A DNA stretch of 64,000 bases from assembly GCA_041663665.1 (NCBI GenBank), contig JBAYMG010000005.1, positions 1,354 to 65,353 on the forward strand, in the 5' to 3' direction. This document shows, in pieces, positions 2,911 to 60,462 of the stretch. Source of the stretch: Candidatus Omnitrophota bacterium (GTDB lineage: Bacteria > Omnitrophota > Gorgyraeia > Gygaellales > Profunditerraquicolaceae). Position 1 is the stretch's first letter. Each line of letters starts with the position of its first letter. Both the position numbers and the translations under genes were made by a program. The notes under the pieces were generated by a model. That model was not told the origin of the DNA and did not search any database. It saw only the letters and a list, made by a program, of their open reading frames with translations.

Positions 2911-4154
2911 AAGAAAAAATATTACAAGCGCCGGATTCGCCCGGTGTTTATCTGATGCGCGATAGCCAGGGTCAGGTTCTTTATGTCGGTAAGGCTAATT
3001 CATTAAGAAAGCGCCTGCTTAGTTATTTAGGCGCAGGTTTATCTAATAAAACTATGGCTCTAGTGGATAAAATCGCTGATGTTGAGGTCAGGTTGTCGGC
3101 CAACGAGAGTATGGCTTTACTGCTTGAGGCCAACCTTATCCATGAATTTAAGCCAAGATATAATATTTCGCTCAAAGATGACAAAAGTTTTCCTTTTCTT
3201 AGGATTTCGCAGGAAAAATTTCCATCAATTTCTATTGTTCGCCGGAAGAAATATGCAGACGGCCAATATCTGGGGCCATATACTAATGCTAAGCTTCTAA
3301 AAAGTGCTCTTAAAATTATCCGGTATAGTTTTGCTTTTCGATCTTGCAGGAATATGCCCAAAAAGAGCTGTATTTACTTTAGGATTAATCTCTGCCCTGC
3401 TCCTTGTATTGGAAAAATCAGTGCTCGGGAATATAAGCTGGCCCTGGATAATATTATTCTAATTTTAGAAGGTAAAAATGACCGATTAGTTAGCAAGCTT
3501 ACAAAATTAATGCAGGATAAAGCTAAAGTAATGGATTTTGAGGCGGCAGCCAATTGTCGCGATCAGATTAGTGTTTTATCTGAGATGCCACTGGTTTATT
3601 CCGGAGATAATCGTAGAAAAGAGCTGTTGGATTTAAAAAATAGGCTGGGTTTAAAAAAACTTCCCGTAGTCATCGAAGGATTCGATATCTCTGACATTTT
3701 TGGTAAACTTGCGGTTGGCTCAATGGTCAGTTTTCGCGATGGTAGCCCGGATAAAAATAGTTACCGCAGGTATCGGATAAAAAGTTTTAATGGAATTGAC
3801 GATTATCGCATGCTAGCTGAGGTGGTCAGGCGGCGTTATAGACGTTTGCTTAAAGAAAATTTGCCTTTGCCGGATTTGTTGCTTATTGATGGTGGCAAGG
3901 GGCATCTTCTGACAGTTCAGGGAGTGCTTAAGGAATTAAATGTTTCTATTCCCCTGGTCAGTATTGCTAAAGAAAAAGAAAATATTTATAGCAATAAAAA
4001 TTTGTCCGCCTTAAACTTTCCTAAAGATGCCGTGGCTATGAATTTGATTCGCAGGATACGTGATGAAGCGCATAGGTTTGCTTTAAGCTACCATCATTTA
4101 TTACGGCGGCAAGAATTAATTGGGGCTAGTCGAAAAACAGGTAGATTAAATTGA
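2889..4154 (+). CDS. uvrC: UvrC-like excinuclease (GIY-YIG plus RNase H-like endonuclease domain; C-terminal HhH pair absent)
   Basis: GIY-YIG motif (PGVYLMRDSQGQVLYVGKANSLRKR) and the UvrC endonuclease-domain pattern (VVIEGFDISDIFG...GSMVSFRDGSPDKNSYRRYRI). The stop at 4154 falls where the (HhH)2 domain would begin. Confidence 0.75.
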   Translation: MENREKLKEKILQAPDSPGVYLMRDSQGQVLYVGKANSLRKRLLSYLGAGLSNKTMALVDKIADVEVRLSANESMALLLEANLIHEFKPRYNISLKDDKSFPFLRISQEKFPSISIVRRKKYADGQYLGPYTNAKLLKSALKIIRYSFAFRSCRNMPKKSCIYFRINLCPAPCIGKISAREYKLALDNIILILEGKNDRLVSKLTKLMQDKAKVMDFEAAANCRDQISVLSEMPLVYSGDNRRKELLDLKNRLGLKKLPVVIEGFDISDIFGKLAVGSMVSFRDGSPDKNSYRRYRIKSFNGIDDYRMLAEVVRRRYRRLLKENLPLPDLLLIDGGKGHLLTVQGVLKELNVSIPLVSIAKEKENIYSNKNLSALNFPKDAVAMNLIRRIRDEAHRFALSYHHLLRRQELIGASRKTGRLN

Positions 4155-16324: not shown

Positions 16325-16431
16325 AATTATGCGGCGGGATAAAACTGCGCATGAGCTTACTTTTACTGTTAATCTATTTTTGCAGGCAAGTAGCAGTAAG
16401 CCAAGCGTTCATTTAAAAGGAGGGTTTTAAG

Positions 16432-27746: not shown

Positions 27747-27998
27747 CTATGCCTGATAACCCTGTTTGTTGCCGGAAAACATAAAGGGTTGTGAGGGAAT
27801 AGATTATTTTTAGTTACAGTTTTTACTCTTGTTTTAGTGCTGTTTTCGTATTTTTTTCCTGCGTTAATAACTTTCCGTAAAGTCTTATTTCAATATTTTA
27901 AATCAATCTGGGTTGCAGTAACTTTAGGTTTTTAATGAGTGCCTGCAGCCCTGGGTATATTTTTAACTTATTTATAAGATAGAAATTCCGCGAAAGAT

Positions 27999-28190
27999 GA
28001 TTTTCGCTAGACAAAAGCTTAAGGTGCCTATCCTGCCTCACTATGTTCGACAGGATTTCGCTAGACAAAAGCTTAAGGTGTCTATCCTGCCTCACTATGT
28101 TCGACAGGATTTCGCTAGACAAAAGCTTAAGGTGTCTATCCTGCCTCACTATGTTCGACAGGATTTCGCTAGACAAAAGCTTAAGGTGCT
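27999..28190. repeat. Tandem direct repeat array, 54-bp unit, about 3.5 copies (first unit 55 bp)
   Basis: ATTTCGCTAGACAAAAGCTTAAGGTG(C/T)CTATCCTGCCTCACTATGTTCGACAGG repeats at 27999, 28055, 28109 and 28163 (the last partial). The only variation is one SNP and one extra T in unit 1. Confidence 0.95.
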
Positions 28191-28199
28191 TAATTTTAC

Positions 28200-28234
28200 T
28201 TGACAAATGATACTTATATGGTATCATTAATGAT
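28200..28234 (+). promoter_or_regulatory. Promoter TTGACA-16-TATCAT overlapped by the operator-like palindromes ATGATAC-N7-GTATCAT and ATCATTAATGAT
   Basis: TTGACA is at 28200-28205. The inverted repeat spans 28207-28227 and overlaps -10, and a 12-bp perfect palindrome lies at 28223-28234. Confidence 0.55.
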
Positions 28235-28255
28235 GTATGAAGGAGGTGATTAGAT

Positions 28256-28333
28256 ATGGAAGTAACGATTAAGTATATGCTTAGGCCGGTAGCCCACTGT
28301 AAAGAAGGCTGCAGTAGATTGTCCCGGGCATGA
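28256..28333 (+). CDS. 25-codon ORF with a perfect 10-nt Shine-Dalgarno (leader peptide or small protein)
   Basis: AAGGAGGTGAttagatATG; the peptide is MEVTIKYMLRPVAHCKEGCSRLSRA. Confidence 0.35.
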   Translation: MEVTIKYMLRPVAHCKEGCSRLSRA

Positions 28334-28384
28334 CGATAAACTACCCACCGTTTTTATAAAATATGATTAGGAGAAGAAGTAGTT

Positions 28385-38183: not shown

Positions 38184-39971
38184 ATGTTAGGAATAAGGCT
38201 GAGCGGTTTTTTTGTTGCGGTTTTTTTGTTTTCCTCCGGGGTGTCTTTTGCTTCTGAAGATAAGGCTCTAGATTTAGAGACTTTGGTAATTTCCAAACAA
38301 AGGCAGTTTCTTCTAAATACCTATGTTGCAGATTCAGGACAGAGCAAAGCTTTTAATTATCAATCCAGTGTAGAAGATTTGAGTATAGCTCCGGTAGATT
38401 TACAAAGCCGATCCTTGAGGAGCGCAATTCAGACTGACTTTTCACTGCGTGGCTCTACTTTTCAACAGGTTCTAATTTTACTTAACGGCCAGAGGATAAA
38501 TGATCCTCAGACTGCCCACCATAATTCTGATATTCCTTTTACTAAGGAAGATATTAAAAAAATACAGGTTATTCCCGGGGCAAGCTCATCATTATTCGGC
38601 TCGGATGCTATCGGTGGGGCAATAAATTTTACTTTGGAAAAACCGGAAAAGAGAAAAATGCTTTGGGAATTTGCATCCGGTAATAATCGTAACGGTTGTG
38701 GGCTATTTAGCGTAAGTGATAAATTCAAAAGTTTGGGTTTTCGGTTTTCGGTCGAAGATGCCCAGTCAAAAGGGTTTCGTTATGACACTGATTTTAAGAA
38801 ATTTACCACTTCCTTCGGCGGTTCTTTGGATTTGCCTTTAGGCAGTTGGGAAAATAATTTTGGTTATCAAGAAAAAGAGTTTGGCGCCTATGATTTTTAT
38901 ACTCCGGGGATGGGTTATCCTTCCTGGGAAAAGACAAAAACCTATTTAATAAATAGCGGTATTACTTTAAATAAAGATAATTTATTGATCAAGCCGAATT
39001 TTCTTTGGCGTAGGCATTTTGATAAATTTGCTTTAAAAAGAACGGTGGATAGTTTTAATGATCACCGAAACGATATTTATACTCCCAGTATTTATTTACA
39101 AAAAGAAGCCGGGTTTTTGGGAAAAGTGGGGTTGGGTTTAGAGTGGGGGCAGGAGAAAATTACTTCGACTAGTTTAGGCAATCATAGCCGAGAACATAAA
39201 AGCATATTTTTAGATGATAGCTTGGAAATCGGCGAGCAATTGGATTTGGGTTTTTCTTTGCGCAGGGATGATTTTTCTGTTTTTGATCGGGTTTATACCG
39301 GATCAAGCAGCGTAAAATTTGCCTTAACCGAACGGGCAGATCTAAATCTTGGCATTTCAAGGAGCATGCGCGTTCCATCATTCACCGAGCTTTATTATAG
39401 CGACTCGACTACAATCGGCAATGAGGGCTTAGCTGCCGAGAAAGCCTGGAATTATCAGGCAGGATTTGAATATAAAGACGGGGGTTTCTCTTCGGGGCTT
39501 GTTTTCTTTTTGCGCCAGGAACATCAAATGATTGATTGGGTCAGATCAGATGTAAGTCAAAAGTGGCAGGCTAGGAATTTTACGCAAGATAGTGTTTTTG
39601 GTGTTGAATGCTCTCTGCATAAAAAAATTAATAAATTAGTCAGTTTAGATGTTAATTATGCCTATACCAATAAAAATATTGATAACCAGGGGTATCTCTA
39701 TAAATACGGCCCAAATTATGCCAAGCATTTAGTAAACACAGTTTTTAATTTTGACCTTCCCTTTGGCCGGCAGGAACTGGGGCTTAGCTATAAAAAACGG
39801 CCCCAAAGGAATGGATGGTTATTAATGAATGCTGGATTAAATTACAATTTAAATCCCAATTCCAAGGTTTTTTTAAACTCAACCAATGTCTTAAACGTTG
39901 AATATCAGGATATTGCGGGTATTCCTTGCCCGGGTAGATATTTTGAAGCAGGCCTAAGATTAGAGTGGTAG
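38184..39971 (+). CDS. TonB-dependent outer-membrane receptor
   Basis: Signal peptide, plug-domain motif (LRGSTFQQVLILLNGQRINDP) and a C-terminal aromatic terminus (LRLEW). Confidence 0.7.
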   Translation: MLGIRLSGFFVAVFLFSSGVSFASEDKALDLETLVISKQRQFLLNTYVADSGQSKAFNYQSSVEDLSIAPVDLQSRSLRSAIQTDFSLRGSTFQQVLILLNGQRINDPQTAHHNSDIPFTKEDIKKIQVIPGASSSLFGSDAIGGAINFTLEKPEKRKMLWEFASGNNRNGCGLFSVSDKFKSLGFRFSVEDAQSKGFRYDTDFKKFTTSFGGSLDLPLGSWENNFGYQEKEFGAYDFYTPGMGYPSWEKTKTYLINSGITLNKDNLLIKPNFLWRRHFDKFALKRTVDSFNDHRNDIYTPSIYLQKEAGFLGKVGLGLEWGQEKITSTSLGNHSREHKSIFLDDSLEIGEQLDLGFSLRRDDFSVFDRVYTGSSSVKFALTERADLNLGISRSMRVPSFTELYYSDSTTIGNEGLAAEKAWNYQAGFEYKDGGFSSGLVFFLRQEHQMIDWVRSDVSQKWQARNFTQDSVFGVECSLHKKINKLVSLDVNYAYTNKNIDNQGYLYKYGPNYAKHLVNTVFNFDLPFGRQELGLSYKKRPQRNGWLLMNAGLNYNLNPNSKVFLNSTNVLNVEYQDIAGIPCPGRYFEAGLRLEW

Positions 39972-40040
39972 AAATAAATATTTATTTTTAACCGCAAAAA
40001 GCATATAATGGCATAGTTTTAAATTAACCAGAAAGGGCCT

Positions 40041-40331
40041 ATGTTTACGCATGTAGTTTTATTTGAAATAAAGCCGAAAGAAGTGGCTAAGTATCGTAAG
40101 GACAGCCTGATGTGGGCGCGTTATACCAAATGCTCTAACGGGTTTTTAGCCTATTACACTATGCAGCGTTTTGGTTTTAAAAATCAATATGCCTCGGTGT
40201 ATCAGTGGGTAAAAAAGGCTAATCATGATAATTTTATGCGTAAATATCATGATTGGTTAGTTAGTAAATCCAGCGCCGAAGTTAAAGTTATAGATTATTA
40301 CAATCTTAAAGTAATTGATAAATTAATCTAG
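40041..40331 (+). CDS. ABM-domain (antibiotic biosynthesis monooxygenase-like) small protein, tentative
   Basis: HVVLFEIKP ferredoxin-like fold pattern in a 96-aa protein. Confidence 0.4.
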   Translation: MFTHVVLFEIKPKEVAKYRKDSLMWARYTKCSNGFLAYYTMQRFGFKNQYASVYQWVKKANHDNFMRKYHDWLVSKSSAEVKVIDYYNLKVIDKLI

Positions 40332-40350
40332 TTTTTGATATAAAAAATTT

Positions 40351-40447
40351 ACTACGTTCGACAGGATTTCGCTAGATAAAAGCTTAAGGTGCCTATCCTG
40401 CCTCACTATGTTCGACAGGATTTCGCTAGACAAAAGCTTAAGGTGCT
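40351..40447. repeat. Second locus of the 54-bp repeat family (about 1.8 copies)
   Basis: actacGTTCGACAGG + ATTTCGCTAGATAAAAGCTTAAGGTGCCTATCCTGCCTCACTATGTTCGACAGG + ATTTCGCTAGACAAAAGCTTAAGGTGCT. It is near-identical to the 27999-28190 units. Confidence 0.95.
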
Positions 40448-40457
40448 CAAAAAATAG

Positions 40458-40485
40458 TTGACAAATTCAAGAAATATTATAAAAT
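40458..40485 (+). promoter_or_regulatory. cspA promoter TTGACA-16-TAAAAT with about 120-nt 5'UTR
   Basis: TTGACA lies 10 bp after the last repeat unit. Long 5'UTRs are typical of cold-shock genes. Confidence 0.55.
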
Positions 40486-40614
40486 ATTTAACGTAGTGAG
40501 CAAGGGAGTTGAAGTCTTAAGCCGTTTGGTGAAAGAATAATACACCTTACGGTTTTTTGTTTTTATACTTCTTTTGTCCGCTATAATTATAGTGGAAAGG
40601 AGGAAGCAGAGAAA

Positions 40615-40815
40615 ATGGCAAAAGGTAAAGTAAAATGGTTTTCTAATCAAAAGGGATATGGTTTTATCACTCCTGAGAATGGTGCTGATGTCTTCGTACA
40701 TCATACCGCAATTCAGGGCGAAGGCTATAAGACCTTAGAGGAGGGCCAAGAGGTTGAATTTGAAATTGAAAAAGGTCCCAAAGGTGAACAAGCTACTAAA
40801 GTAGTGAAGTTATAA
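40615..40815 (+). CDS. cspA: Cold-shock protein CspA family
   Basis: [19 protein letters not shown]1 and VFVHH RNP2 motifs in a 66-aa protein. Confidence 0.9.
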
Positions 40816-40832
40816 CCTGTAAGGAGCAACGA

Positions 40833-40865
40833 AAAGGCCCGGCATAACCTGCTGGGCCTTTTTCA
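40833..40865 (+). terminator. Rho-independent terminator after cspA
   Basis: aaaGGCCCGGCataacctGCTGGGCCttttt. Confidence 0.65.
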
Positions 40866-40876
40866 TAATAAAGCAT

Positions 40877-41944
40877 ATGAAAAAAATTGTAGTGGTGGCG
40901 ATGAGTGGAGGGGTGGATTCTTCGGTTGCGGCAGCCTTATTAAAAGAACAGGGCTATGAAGTAATCGGGTTAACCATGTGTTTTAATCTGGCTGAGAAAG
41001 ACGGTAAGAAGCCTGCTTGTTGCGGGTTAGCCGGGATTGAAGATGCCCGCCGCGTAAGCCATAAGTTGGGTATCCGGCATTATGTTATAAATCTGGATAA
41101 AGATTTCTACCGGGATGTAATCCAGAATTTTTATCAGGAATATCTTTCCGGGAGGACACCAAATCCTTGCGTTAGATGCAATCAATTCATAAAATTTGAT
41201 CTTTTACTTAAGAAAGCAATTAATTTAGGTGCACAGTTTTTAGCTACCGGCCATTATGCCAGGATTGTAAAGTCAAAACAGGGTTACTTGCTTAAAAAAG
41301 CTAAGGATTTAAAAAAAGACCAATCTTATTTTCTTTATCGTTTAACTCAAAGTAAGCTTAAGCATATAATTTTCCCTTTGGATGGTTTAACTAAACCTAA
41401 AGTAAGGCAGATAGCTCTTAGCCTTGGGCTGACTGTGGCTAATAAGCAAGACAGCCAAGAAATTTGTTTTTTGCCCGATGGGAAATATCGGGATCTGCTT
41501 AAAGCTAAAGGGCTGGGCTCTGTTAAACCGGGTAATTTAGTGAATAAAGACGGCAATATTCTTGGTCTGCATCAGGGAATATCCGCTTATACTATAGGCC
41601 AGCGCCATGGATTAGGAGTTGCTAAAGGTTATCCCCTATATGTAACTGCAATTGATGCTAAGAATAACCAGGTTACAGTTGGCAGCCGGGAGGACAGTTG
41701 TAAAAGTGAATTCATAGTTCAAGATCAGCATTTTATAGCTAAACCTTTTAAAAAGAAGGTTGAGATTAAGGTAAGGATACGTTATAATCATAAAGAAATG
41801 CCGGCAGTTATTATCCCGGCGGGTAGAAAATTAAGAGTGATTTTTAAAAAACCGCAATTTGCTATAACGCCCGGACAATCGGCGGTTTTTTTCGCTAAGG
41901 ACACAGTTTTGGGTGGGGGAATAATCGAGAAAGTAATTAATTAA
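40877..41944 (+). CDS. mnmA: tRNA-specific 2-thiouridylase MnmA
   Basis: PP-loop VAMSGGVDSS and NPCVRCNQFIKF motifs. Confidence 0.9.
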   Translation: MKKIVVVAMSGGVDSSVAAALLKEQGYEVIGLTMCFNLAEKDGKKPACCGLAGIEDARRVSHKLGIRHYVINLDKDFYRDVIQNFYQEYLSGRTPNPCVRCNQFIKFDLLLKKAINLGAQFLATGHYARIVKSKQGYLLKKAKDLKKDQSYFLYRLTQSKLKHIIFPLDGLTKPKVRQIALSLGLTVANKQDSQEICFLPDGKYRDLLKAKGLGSVKPGNLVNKDGNILGLHQGISAYTIGQRHGLGVAKGYPLYVTAIDAKNNQVTVGSREDSCKSEFIVQDQHFIAKPFKKKVEIKVRIRYNHKEMPAVIIPAGRKLRVIFKKPQFAITPGQSAVFFAKDTVLGGGIIEKVIN

Positions 41945-54287: not shown

Positions 54288-54290
54288 ACG

Positions 54291-54483
54291 CTCTAGATAC
54301 TTGATCTTACTATCGTTCGATCAAGTATTTCGCTGGATAAAACCTTTGGGGTGCTCTAGATACTTGATCTTACTATCGTTCGATCAAGTATTTCGCTGGA
54401 TAAAATCTTTGGGGTGCTCTAGATACTTGATCTTACTATCGTTCGATCAAGTATTTCGCTGGATAAAATCTTTGGGGTGCTCA
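54291..54483. repeat. Tandem direct repeat array, 63-bp unit, 3 copies; diverged member of the same family with an internal 10-bp inverted repeat
   Basis: CTCTAGATACTTGATCTTACTATCGTTCGATCAAGTATTTCGCTGGATAAAA(C/T)CTTTGGGGTG repeats at 54291, 54354 and 54417. Each unit contains ATACTTGATC-N12-GATCAAGTAT, and the core ACTAT.GTTCGA...ATTTCGCT.GA.AAAA.CTT..GGTG is shared with the 54-bp units. Confidence 0.95.
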
Positions 54484-54547
54484 ATATTTTCTCTTTCTTT
54501 TTTAAGGAATTTGTGTACAATATAACAAAAGCTTGAAAAGTTATTTA

Positions 54548-54619
54548 GCCGAGATAGCTCAGTGGTAGAGCGCGGCCCTGAAAAGGCCGGCGTGGGGGGT
54601 CCGATTCCCTCTCTCGGCA
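54548..54619 (+). tRNA. tRNA-Phe (anticodon GAA), no encoded CCA
   Basis: Manual fold: acceptor GCCGAGA/TCTCGGC, D-arm GCTC-AGTGGTA-GAGC, anticodon arm CGGCC-CTGAAAA-GGCCG, T-arm GGGGG-TCCGATT-CCCTC. The T-loop reads TCC instead of the canonical TTC. Confidence 0.8.
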
Positions 54620-54875: not shown

Positions 54876-55054
54876 TTTTGTATCTCACCTCCTCCAAGAA
54901 TAAAAAAAATCCGCAAAGCAGGTTAATTTCTATTGCTGCCTTACGGTTTGTCGATAAAACTAATCAATTTCTTGTTTCTCCTCTTAAATCTACTTTTATT
55001 TAATTTATCATGAATTATCAGTTTGTCAACATCTTTCTGTTCATAAGTGAGTGG

Positions 55055-60346: not shown

Positions 60347-60462
60347 GGGTAATCCCCCGCGTAACGGCTTAAAAATTCATTTGGAATTTTTTCGCACGCT
60401 CGGGATAAATTCGCGCACTGATTTATTTTCACTGTCGTGTTCGTAAGTCAAGCGCTCATTTA

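Follow-up and report, generated by a model that had tools for sequence, protein, structure and literature searches.

Repetitive extragenic palindromic (REP) units of enterobacteria carry a 5' GTAG, alternate in orientation within bacterial interspersed mosaic elements (BIMEs) and are thought to be recognised as single-stranded hairpins. Mycobacterial interspersed repetitive units (MIRUs), which form variable-number tandem repeat (VNTR) loci in Mycobacterium tuberculosis, are reportedly read as short open reading frames (ORFs) that couple translation. BOX elements of Streptococcus pneumoniae, built as boxA-boxB(n)-boxC, are regarded as non-autonomous mobile elements with incidental regulatory effects, and MITEs are defined, as quoted in the same source, as miniature inverted-repeat elements derived from insertion sequences (IS) (PMC3049150). 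Here we describe a repeat family in 64,000 nucleotides of Candidatus Omnitrophota DNA (contig JBAYMG010000005.1; hereafter the window), above all array 2, which occupies positions 40351-40447 directly upstream of cspA. With a probability of about 0.6, we read array 2 as a lineage-specific insertion of a mobile, tandemly amplifying, hairpin-containing modular repeat of Omnitrophota, comparable to BOX, MIRU and MITE. The regulatory reading of two like promoter junctions would then give way to a tested alternative: in a compact genome, mobile repeats survive only beside promoters and start codons and so look phased with them.

By analogy, the arrays would belong to a MITE-related family whose closest counterparts are pneumococcal BOX (PMC3049150), mycobacterial MIRU and enterobacterial BIMEs. 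Like BOX, they are small, non-coding, interspersed and intergenic, they contain an internal module in tandem at variable number (1 to 3.5 units; two in contig L083 versus one in L120), they form predicted stem-loops, and they often lie near gene 5' ends, where co-transcription is possible. However, there is no sequence relationship, and the distinct boxA and boxC terminal modules have no counterpart here: only the 3' end is defined (GGTGCT-CAA), 5' ends are ragged, loop and tail do not change across genera while the stem covaries, the hosts form a candidate phylum, and the arrays are enriched ahead of tRNA genes. MIRU-VNTR loci likewise consist of 50-60-bp units, repeated directly in tandem with copy numbers that vary; they are scattered over intergenic and intercistronic spacers and mostly run with the operon, their ends touching the stop or start codons of neighbours. 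Their sequences are unrelated to ours, and the constraint here falls on a hairpin instead of a conserved reading frame. No frame-keeping mini-ORFs were found: the periods of 54, 62 and 63 bp do not keep frame and the translated array, including the ORF through array 3, has no protein homologues, which led us to reject coding potential. With REP units, BIMEs and the associated RAYT transposases, the family shares extragenic palindromic units and conserved linker motifs in mosaic clusters, as well as a structure that is conserved while the stem can vary; yet all units here are direct, with neither a conserved GTAG nor alternating orientation, and no RAYT gene was seen in the ORFs and annotations checked. 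Arrays 1 to 3 of the window differ from MITEs in being one-ended direct tandem repeats that lack terminal inverted repeats and target duplications. A composite form of the family, described below, comes closer.

Array 2 and its orthologous sites

The sequence-only reading had described array 2 as about 1.8 units of a 54-bp repeat, more than 95% identical to array 1, starting some 20 bp past the upstream stop codon and ending 10 bp before a strong promoter. All of this was borne out. Nineteen bases separate the TAG at 40329-40331 from the first base of the repeat, identity to array 1 (28002-28190) is 96% over 100 nt, and the final GGTGCT reaches 40447; after a 10-bp gap come TTGACA (40458-40463), a 16-nt spacer and TAAAAT (40480-40485), with 11 of 12 consensus positions matched. 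The copy said to carry a variant is the first one, which has GATAAAAG at 40375-40382, and the distance from GGTGCT to TTGACA is indeed alike at two promoters, being 9 bp for array 1 and 10 bp for array 2. In the complete unit (40394-40447) a 15-nt loop, CCTCACTATGTTCGA, precedes the tail TTTCGCTAGACAAAAGCTTAAGGTGCT, and the unit matches covariance model R1 at E=4.7e-8; we used two such models, R1 for canonical array units and R2 for a divergent subfamily. The same sequence is present in a second assembly of this genome (L087/L099/L118; L-numbers denote comparison contigs, all comparison sequences being metagenome assemblies), and the left junction also in a third, a Logan contig (L119) that ends inside the repeat. 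Array 2 is thus a real, non-chance feature. Look-ups of the flanking proteins in the window gave matches from the same genome only; an identical Rrf2 protein carries Candidatus Omnitrophota as its source name.

Comparison of orthologous cspA upstream regions went against the idea that the units belong to the promoter. CspA is identical in at least eight related genomes with the same gene order, and the relatives conserve both the promoter (TTGACAAA...TATAAAAT) and the leader of ~130 nt. Yet the units are not kept: in L088, L089, L091 and L093 there are none, and the upstream stop codon abuts the -35 or lies at most 12 bases from it. Outside the window, array 2 is found in full only in the second assembly of the same genome. 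Except for its first bases, the gap CAAAAAATAG (40448-40457) is similar to the A/T tract AAAATATAG found ahead of the -35 in the repeat-free relatives. From these alignments we take the cspA promoter and leader to be ancestral and independent of the units, whose influence on cspA, or on the 3' end of the upstream transcript, would at most be accessory. The units may have an incidental effect on cspA expression.

Other relatives have filled the same spot with something else. Inserts unrelated to the repeat, and to one another, lie between the gene for the 96-amino-acid protein and the cspA -35 in L086/L092 (2659-2870), L094 (2680-2860), L090 (2773-2850) and L106 (4281-4335), and none is repeated elsewhere in the comparison DNA. 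One of them holds 3.5 copies of GAGCTATG; a similar octamer repeat, TTCATAGY, follows rpsI in L121 and L129. Judged by these alignments, this spot behaves as an insertion hot spot.

Filled and empty versions of orthologous sites recur elsewhere. In L108 the array 1 site is repeat-free, and the promoter, with ATGATACT...ATGGTATCAT and the 25-amino-acid leader ORF, lies 14 nt past the upstream stop codon. Conversely, L080 carries a three-unit array exactly between the divergent -35 hexamers of csp and tRNA-Thr, where the window has 25 unrelated bases (55030-55054); the major facilitator superfamily (MFS) protein of L080 is 74% identical to that of the window. A divergent-subfamily unit stands before mnmA in L105 while the corresponding site of the window (40860-40876) is empty, and the composite element is present in L121 and absent from L129.

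Structure, distribution and probable mobility of the repeat

The canonical unit measures 62-63 bp. It begins with a hairpin whose 6-10-bp stem varies in sequence yet remains complementary (variants include ATCCTTGATC, ATACTTGATC, CCTTGGTC, ATACTTGACC and ATCCTG) and whose loop is invariant (T..CT...GTTC; conserved form TCACTAGCGTTC); an invariant tail of ~30 nt follows, ATTTCGCT.GA.AAA....GG.GCT, which can also be written ATTTCGCTRGAYAAAA-N7-8-AAGGTGCT. Within arrays the next unit joins as CTAG plus hairpin, and A/T-rich bases follow the terminal CAA of every array. Among 15 hand-collected units, 98.7% of stem cells pair, with two-sided (compensatory) changes in 3 of 10 pairs. The corresponding values are 95.9% and 5 of 10 for 24 model-aligned units, an alignment that is biased towards the structure through being fitted to the covariance model. 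Slid control alignments pair in only 14-44% of cells. The tail, for its part, is nearly unchanged between genomes whose MFS proteins are only 74% identical. A stem that covaries while loop and tail stay fixed argues for recognition as a folded single strand and not as a duplex protein-binding site.

At -17.7 kcal/mol (z=-2.9) the 63-bp unit folds well. Four stem pairs have been lost from the 54-bp unit found in arrays 1 and 2, and its -8.5 kcal/mol is no better than that of shuffled sequence (z=0.05). That the two arrays have this derived architecture in common means that the copying, whether from one array to the other or from a shared source to both, came after the deletions. We therefore regard the 54-bp units, on sequence grounds, as a shortened derivative copied between loci 12 kb apart.

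A motif of loop, 3' arm and tail has eight matches in the window, all on the + strand and all within the three arrays; none is expected from 100 shuffles of the window. When 185,579 species-representative genomes were scanned, 75 stretches were returned, among which family members occurred in four Omnitrophota metagenome-assembled genomes only; the other stretches were chance matches, many of them tRNA 3' halves. A stricter pattern yielded ten further metagenome contigs with the family, and R1, run over ~680 kb of Omnitrophota DNA, added just one diverged unit (L106) and one variant-hairpin unit (L120). Viral, plasmid and phage collections gave no family match. Rfam at its gathering threshold matched only two tRNAs in the window, and up to E=10 nothing relevant to arrays 1 or 3, small ribozymes and the cspA thermoregulator included. 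The literature searched contains no description of this family. As far as searched, then, this is a previously undescribed interspersed repeat family restricted to Candidatus Omnitrophota, and two covariance models now define it.

Evidence for movement comes from two places. The first is the leuD-leuB spacer, where L083 and L120, whose LeuB proteins are 97% identical, differ by one unit: L120 has a single unit (hairpin ATCCTGCC/GGCAGGAT), and L083 has the same unit plus a second one, placed precisely at the junction GGTGCT^CAA-ATG. That second unit, with its different hairpin TACTTGATC, is not a simple slippage duplicate. The more distant L121 and L129 have other hairpins at this site, perfectly paired, while the L123 clade has no hairpin and an ordinary AAGGAG instead.

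The second is the divergent subfamily, to which the end motif GYGCTCAW led us. Its units are ordered AATTCGCGCA, stem, loop TCGCACTnnCGTGTTC, stem, GYGCTCATTWAA, and they end 3-8 nt before the ATG of rnfB (window 60407-60462), leuB (L121, L129), mnmA (L105) and fabF (L129). In L083 (993-1160) and L121 (14015-14185), two inverted divergent modules surround a central palindrome in composites of ~171 bp; the direct duplications on either side measure 17 nt (94% identical) and 16 nt (100%), respectively. The orthologous terminator of L129 is uninterrupted at the site of the L121 composite. Together, the target duplications and the empty site constitute a MITE-like insertion signature, and the composites further resemble MITEs in their inverted terminal modules, which may also exist in L071 (TTTGAGCAC ... 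GAGCTCAA), and in their highly paired structure. They differ in that the duplications are unusually long and lie in terminator halves, and no cognate IS or transposase is known. Composites and canonical units have in common a 12-13-nt loop (TTCACTATCGTTC), a junction of GGAT with WWTTCGC and the GYGCTCAW end, from which we infer their kinship. With their flanks, the composites span 976-1177 in L083 and 13999-14201 in L121, each duplication being half an intrinsic-terminator stem plus its T or A run; this suggests terminator targeting with widely staggered cuts, or some other insertion chemistry.

We envisage a family that is non-autonomous and moved or copied in trans, as the target duplications and the empty site of the composites would support. 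Units would be added at the conserved junction GGTGCT^C, and arrays would grow or shrink by slippage or unequal recombination, L083 having one unit more than L120 at the same site. Insertions would survive only in the few A/T-rich bases that separate a stop codon or terminator from what comes next, be it a -35, a transcription start, a start codon or the 5' end of a tRNA, and this restriction would produce the apparent phasing with the -35. Some conserved factor would read the element as a folded single strand, RNA or single-stranded DNA; a mobilising enzyme is one candidate, a host protein for RNA binding or processing another. The covarying hairpin and invariant loop and tail would imply a trans-acting partner. 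If that partner were a host RNA factor, it would give access to post-transcriptional control in a phylum without a cultured model.

Several observations weigh against mobile insertion. The canonical arrays have no significant flanking duplication relative to shuffles (the AAAAAAT of array 2 is reached in 91 of 300) and, except in L071, no inverted left end; hence classical transposition is seen only for the divergent composite form. The kinship of that form with the arrays draws on three features, and the cross-match of R1 to the composite hairpin is weak (E about 1). Among the window ORFs checked and in the locus annotations, we saw no gene for a transposase, a reverse transcriptase or an HUH enzyme (a nuclease or transposase acting on single-strand DNA). 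Array 3 has three units in the window versus one in a second assembly of the same genome (L097 1885-1955), and array 1 has 3.5 versus 2.5 there (L095 1160-1312); these differences may be true variation or short-read assembly collapse, and count against us if collapse. The family does break short-read assemblies, and with its varying copy number it could serve as a strain marker. Finally, four findings would fit an RNA function selected by the host: perfect leuD-leuB stems across lineages with 89-100% LeuB identity, 12 contexts in which the canonical arrays run with the downstream gene against 3 antisense ones, 3' ends that are always intact, and enrichment before tRNA genes (4 of 16 arrays stand directly ahead of one).

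Alternative functions

Those findings bring us to the possibility, unlikely in our judgement but the one to be taken most seriously, that the element is a cis-acting RNA module, a sense-transcribed hairpin perhaps with a loop-tail pseudoknot, for which mobility is secondary. It could possibly stabilise the 3' end of the upstream cistron, serve as a processing site ahead of tRNAs or cistrons, or provide a translation-initiation context, in which case the purine-rich tail (AAGGTG/GAGGTG/AAGGAG) would be a candidate Shine-Dalgarno sequence. Besides the predominance of sense orientation, several contexts speak for it. In L001 and L079, promoters (TTGACA-17-TATACT and TTGAGT-17-TATAAT) end 7-10 nt before the element and tRNA-Leu begins 4 nt past its ...GCTCAA, so that the element makes up the whole tRNA leader. 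In L083 and L120 it fills the leuD-leuB spacer, and the leuB ATG follows directly on AAAGGTGCTCAA, with no other Shine-Dalgarno sequence; the leuD-leuB hairpins stay perfectly paired while their sequence changes. Elements also stand directly before the start codons of rnfB, mnmA and fabF, the divergent subfamily keeping the short distances given above. Single-sided changes that preserve pairing give G.U on the + strand at six pair positions and on the - strand at one, a bias that is no more than suggestive.

However, the element is missing at orthologous sites with intact genes, and is therefore dispensable. L071 and L080 have it between divergent promoters, a place where one would not expect a sense transcript, and in three contexts it is antisense to the flanking genes: L028/L085 (flp-like to tadB-like gene), L039 and L076/77 (secE-nusG). 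The candidate pseudoknot (CUAGCG with CGCUAG) keeps 5 of 6 pairs, but 8 of 15 sequences break the central one and none of the pairs has a compensatory change, and the 54-bp units of array 2 fold no better than shuffled ones. A bolder and distinctly doubtful version holds that the family is a domesticated, portable RNA module retained in sense orientation 5' of tRNAs, csp, leuB, rnfB and similar genes, through which a candidate Omnitrophota factor would set RNA ends or translation. Its unusual way of spreading would involve one-ended addition at GGTGCT^C, copies with ragged 5' and intact 3' ends, and duplications of 16-17 nt in terminator halves, which together may hint at an enzyme that recognises single strands or hairpins. 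Were this version true, it would amount to a mobile post-transcriptional regulon in an uncultured phylum.

In E. coli, UP elements and sites for Fis or activators sit upstream of rRNA, tRNA and cspA promoters. The sequence-only reading drew on such a likeness in proposing a functional position for the repeat. Spelled out as a model, the units would act as duplex DNA, either in the manner of an UP element or by binding an activator or nucleoid protein, and their functional distance from the -35 would let them tune strong promoters such as those of cspA and tRNAs. Part of this stands. Of 16 independent arrays, found in the window and in other Omnitrophota contigs by a conserved-motif search, eight have a strong sigma-70-like -35 that begins -1 to +12 bp past the final GCT, whereas ~0.3 would be expected from how often promoter-like sites occur in the background. 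We conclude that adjacency to the -35 is real and extends beyond the two cases first noticed. Highly expressed genes (csp, four tRNAs, enolase) are among the neighbours, a period of 63 bp corresponds to six helical turns, and the end that faces the promoter is always intact while the other is ragged.

The proposed function and the strict phasing did not hold up. Gaps between GCT and -35 in the eight arrays are -1, 8, 9, 10, 11, 11, 12 and 12 bp; a spread of 13 bp argues against strict helical phasing, and there is no fixed position of the kind expected of UP or activator sites. Empty ancestral spacers measure only 0-25 nt, so an insertion that spares both neighbours must end within about a dozen bases of the -35, and adjacency becomes unavoidable. 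L088, L089, L091 and L093 keep the cspA promoter, and L108 the Rrf2 promoter, with no units beside it. The E. coli sites are alike in their position just upstream of the -35 of strong promoters, but here the unit, at 0.44 G+C, is unlike the A/T-rich consensus for the C-terminal domain of the RNA polymerase alpha subunit; only the spacer CAAAAAATAG beside the -35 is A-rich, and it is ancestral. Moreover, elements also occur downstream of promoters, at start codons and antisense within operons, and a stem free to change as long as pairing is kept is the opposite of a protein-recognised half-site. We thus hold a promoter-tuning role to be improbable.

That the units are independent small-RNA genes, or a decoy or sponge array with promoters of its own, is very improbable: they are tandem, structured and conserved, and the last unit of array 2 is overlapped by a weak resemblance to a promoter (TAGACA-17-AAAAAT, 9 of 12), but inspection and scans found no consistent internal promoter or terminator in any orientation, arrays start with 5'-truncated units, leaders and operons have single units embedded in them, and Rfam gave no match.

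Other element classes were tried and rejected. In a CRISPR (clustered regularly interspaced short palindromic repeats) array the spacers would vary, but here it is the entire unit that recurs, its hairpin part being conserved between genomes, and no cas genes occur among the annotated neighbours. An intrinsic terminator is contradicted by a scan of 39900-40900, which found no terminator-like site, and by a loop of 12-15 nt followed by TTTCGCT without a U tract. No Rfam covariance model matched the arrays, and no consistent internal sigma-70, sigma-54 or extracytoplasmic-function promoter was found in the unit in either orientation. The GTTCGA that drew tRNA 3' halves is no T-arm mimic, since its flanks form no T-arm and the matches arise by chance. 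Resemblance to a boxA/boxB nut-like antiterminator (TGCTCT) covers only 6 nt, and a CsrA-type sponge is contradicted by GGA positions that are not the same in 54-bp and 63-bp units. We likewise dismissed the replication strand as setting the orientation: GC skew goes with the gene strand, and of 14 independent contexts (L028/L085 and L076/L077 counted once each) 5 run against it.

Further features of the window and its relatives

The positions of array 2, its neighbours and the other members of the family in the window are collected in Table 1.

Table 1. Repeat units, empty sites and cspA-locus features by position in the window.
Feature	Position	Strand	Remarks
Weaker divergent-subfamily member	16341..16419	+	R2 E=0.004; end GCGTTCATTTAAAAGGAGG, upstream of 74-aa ORF (16432)
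Array 1, 3.5 units of derived 54-bp type	28002..28190	+	9 bp upstream of promoter of leader ORF-Rrf2-hcp operon
Upstream gene, 96 aa	40041..40331	+	no Pfam match; 3' end unlike relatives whose stop abuts -35
Array 2, first unit, 5'-truncated	40351..40393	+	starts within loop ACTACGTTCGA; 3' arm CAGGAT 40362-40367; tail TTTCGCTAGATAAAAGCTTAAGGTGC
Array 2, complete 54-bp unit	40394..40447	+	arms ATCCTG 40395-40400 and CAGGAT 40416-40421
Gap from array 2 to -35	40448..40457	+	CAAAAAATAG; first bases are the usual element end CAA
cspA promoter, TTGACA-16-TAAAAT	40458..40485	+	judged ancestral; kept in repeat-free relatives
cspA 5' leader, conserved	40486..40614	+	terminator-like hairpin 40522-40552, T run 40553-40558
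cspA coding sequence	40615..40815	+	66 aa, CSD domain
Empty site, cspA terminator to mnmA ATG	40860..40876	.	orthologous spacer of L105 filled by divergent-subfamily unit
Array 3, three 63-bp units	54290..54484	+	10-bp stem ATACTTGATC/GATCAAGTAT
Empty site, csp2/tRNA-Thr	55030..55054	.	25 nt between divergent -35 hexamers (csp2 on - strand)
Divergent-subfamily unit, rnfA-rnfB	60407..60462	+	R2 E=5e-15; abuts rnfB ATG (60463)

Array 3 begins directly after the stop codon of a DUF3568 lipoprotein gene, and its terminal CAA (54484) lies 63 nt upstream of tRNA-Phe (54548-54619). The rnfA-rnfB unit is ordered AAATTCGCGCAC, stem, loop TTTTCACTGTCGTGTTC, stem, GCGCTCATTTA. Several genes behind the divergent subfamily (rnfB, mnmA, and leuB in L121 and L129) have no recognisable Shine-Dalgarno sequence.

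Beside array 1, positions 27747-28000 are non-coding and retain just the last ~20 bases of an ArsP_1 permease gene that is intact in L108, which points to local gene decay beside the repeat. On its other side, 28200-28384 holds a conserved Cys-containing leader ORF of 25 amino acids (28257-28334, MEVTIKYMLRPVAHCKEGCSRLSRA; MDITIKYMLRPIAHCKEGCSRLSWA in L108) ahead of the Rrf2 gene. A palindrome, ATGATACT-N5-ATGGTATCAT, extends across the spacer and -10 of the array 1 promoter and is probably an Rrf2 operator.

Across eight relatives the cspA leader is conserved; a run of T6-8 comes after its hairpin (CCGTAAGG...CCTTACGG), at a good distance ahead of the Shine-Dalgarno sequence. Hairpin and T run may form a leader attenuator. 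The leader of the second csp gene (~54876-54960, - strand) and that of the L080 csp gene have a similar hairpin and T run.

In L081 (262-305) a DUF3786 gene lacks a Shine-Dalgarno sequence and has its ATG 6 nt after a TATAAT; this gene may give a leaderless mRNA. Short G+C-rich palindromes (CTGCCGGCCGGCAG, CCCGCGCAGCGGG and CTGCCTGCCTTCCGGCAGG) are nested in degenerate or divergent units in L039 (~4060-4075), L084 (- strand, ~195-210) and L105 (10305-10325), at the same position (ATTT^CGCT) in two of the three. They may represent a second tiny palindromic element that targets the first.

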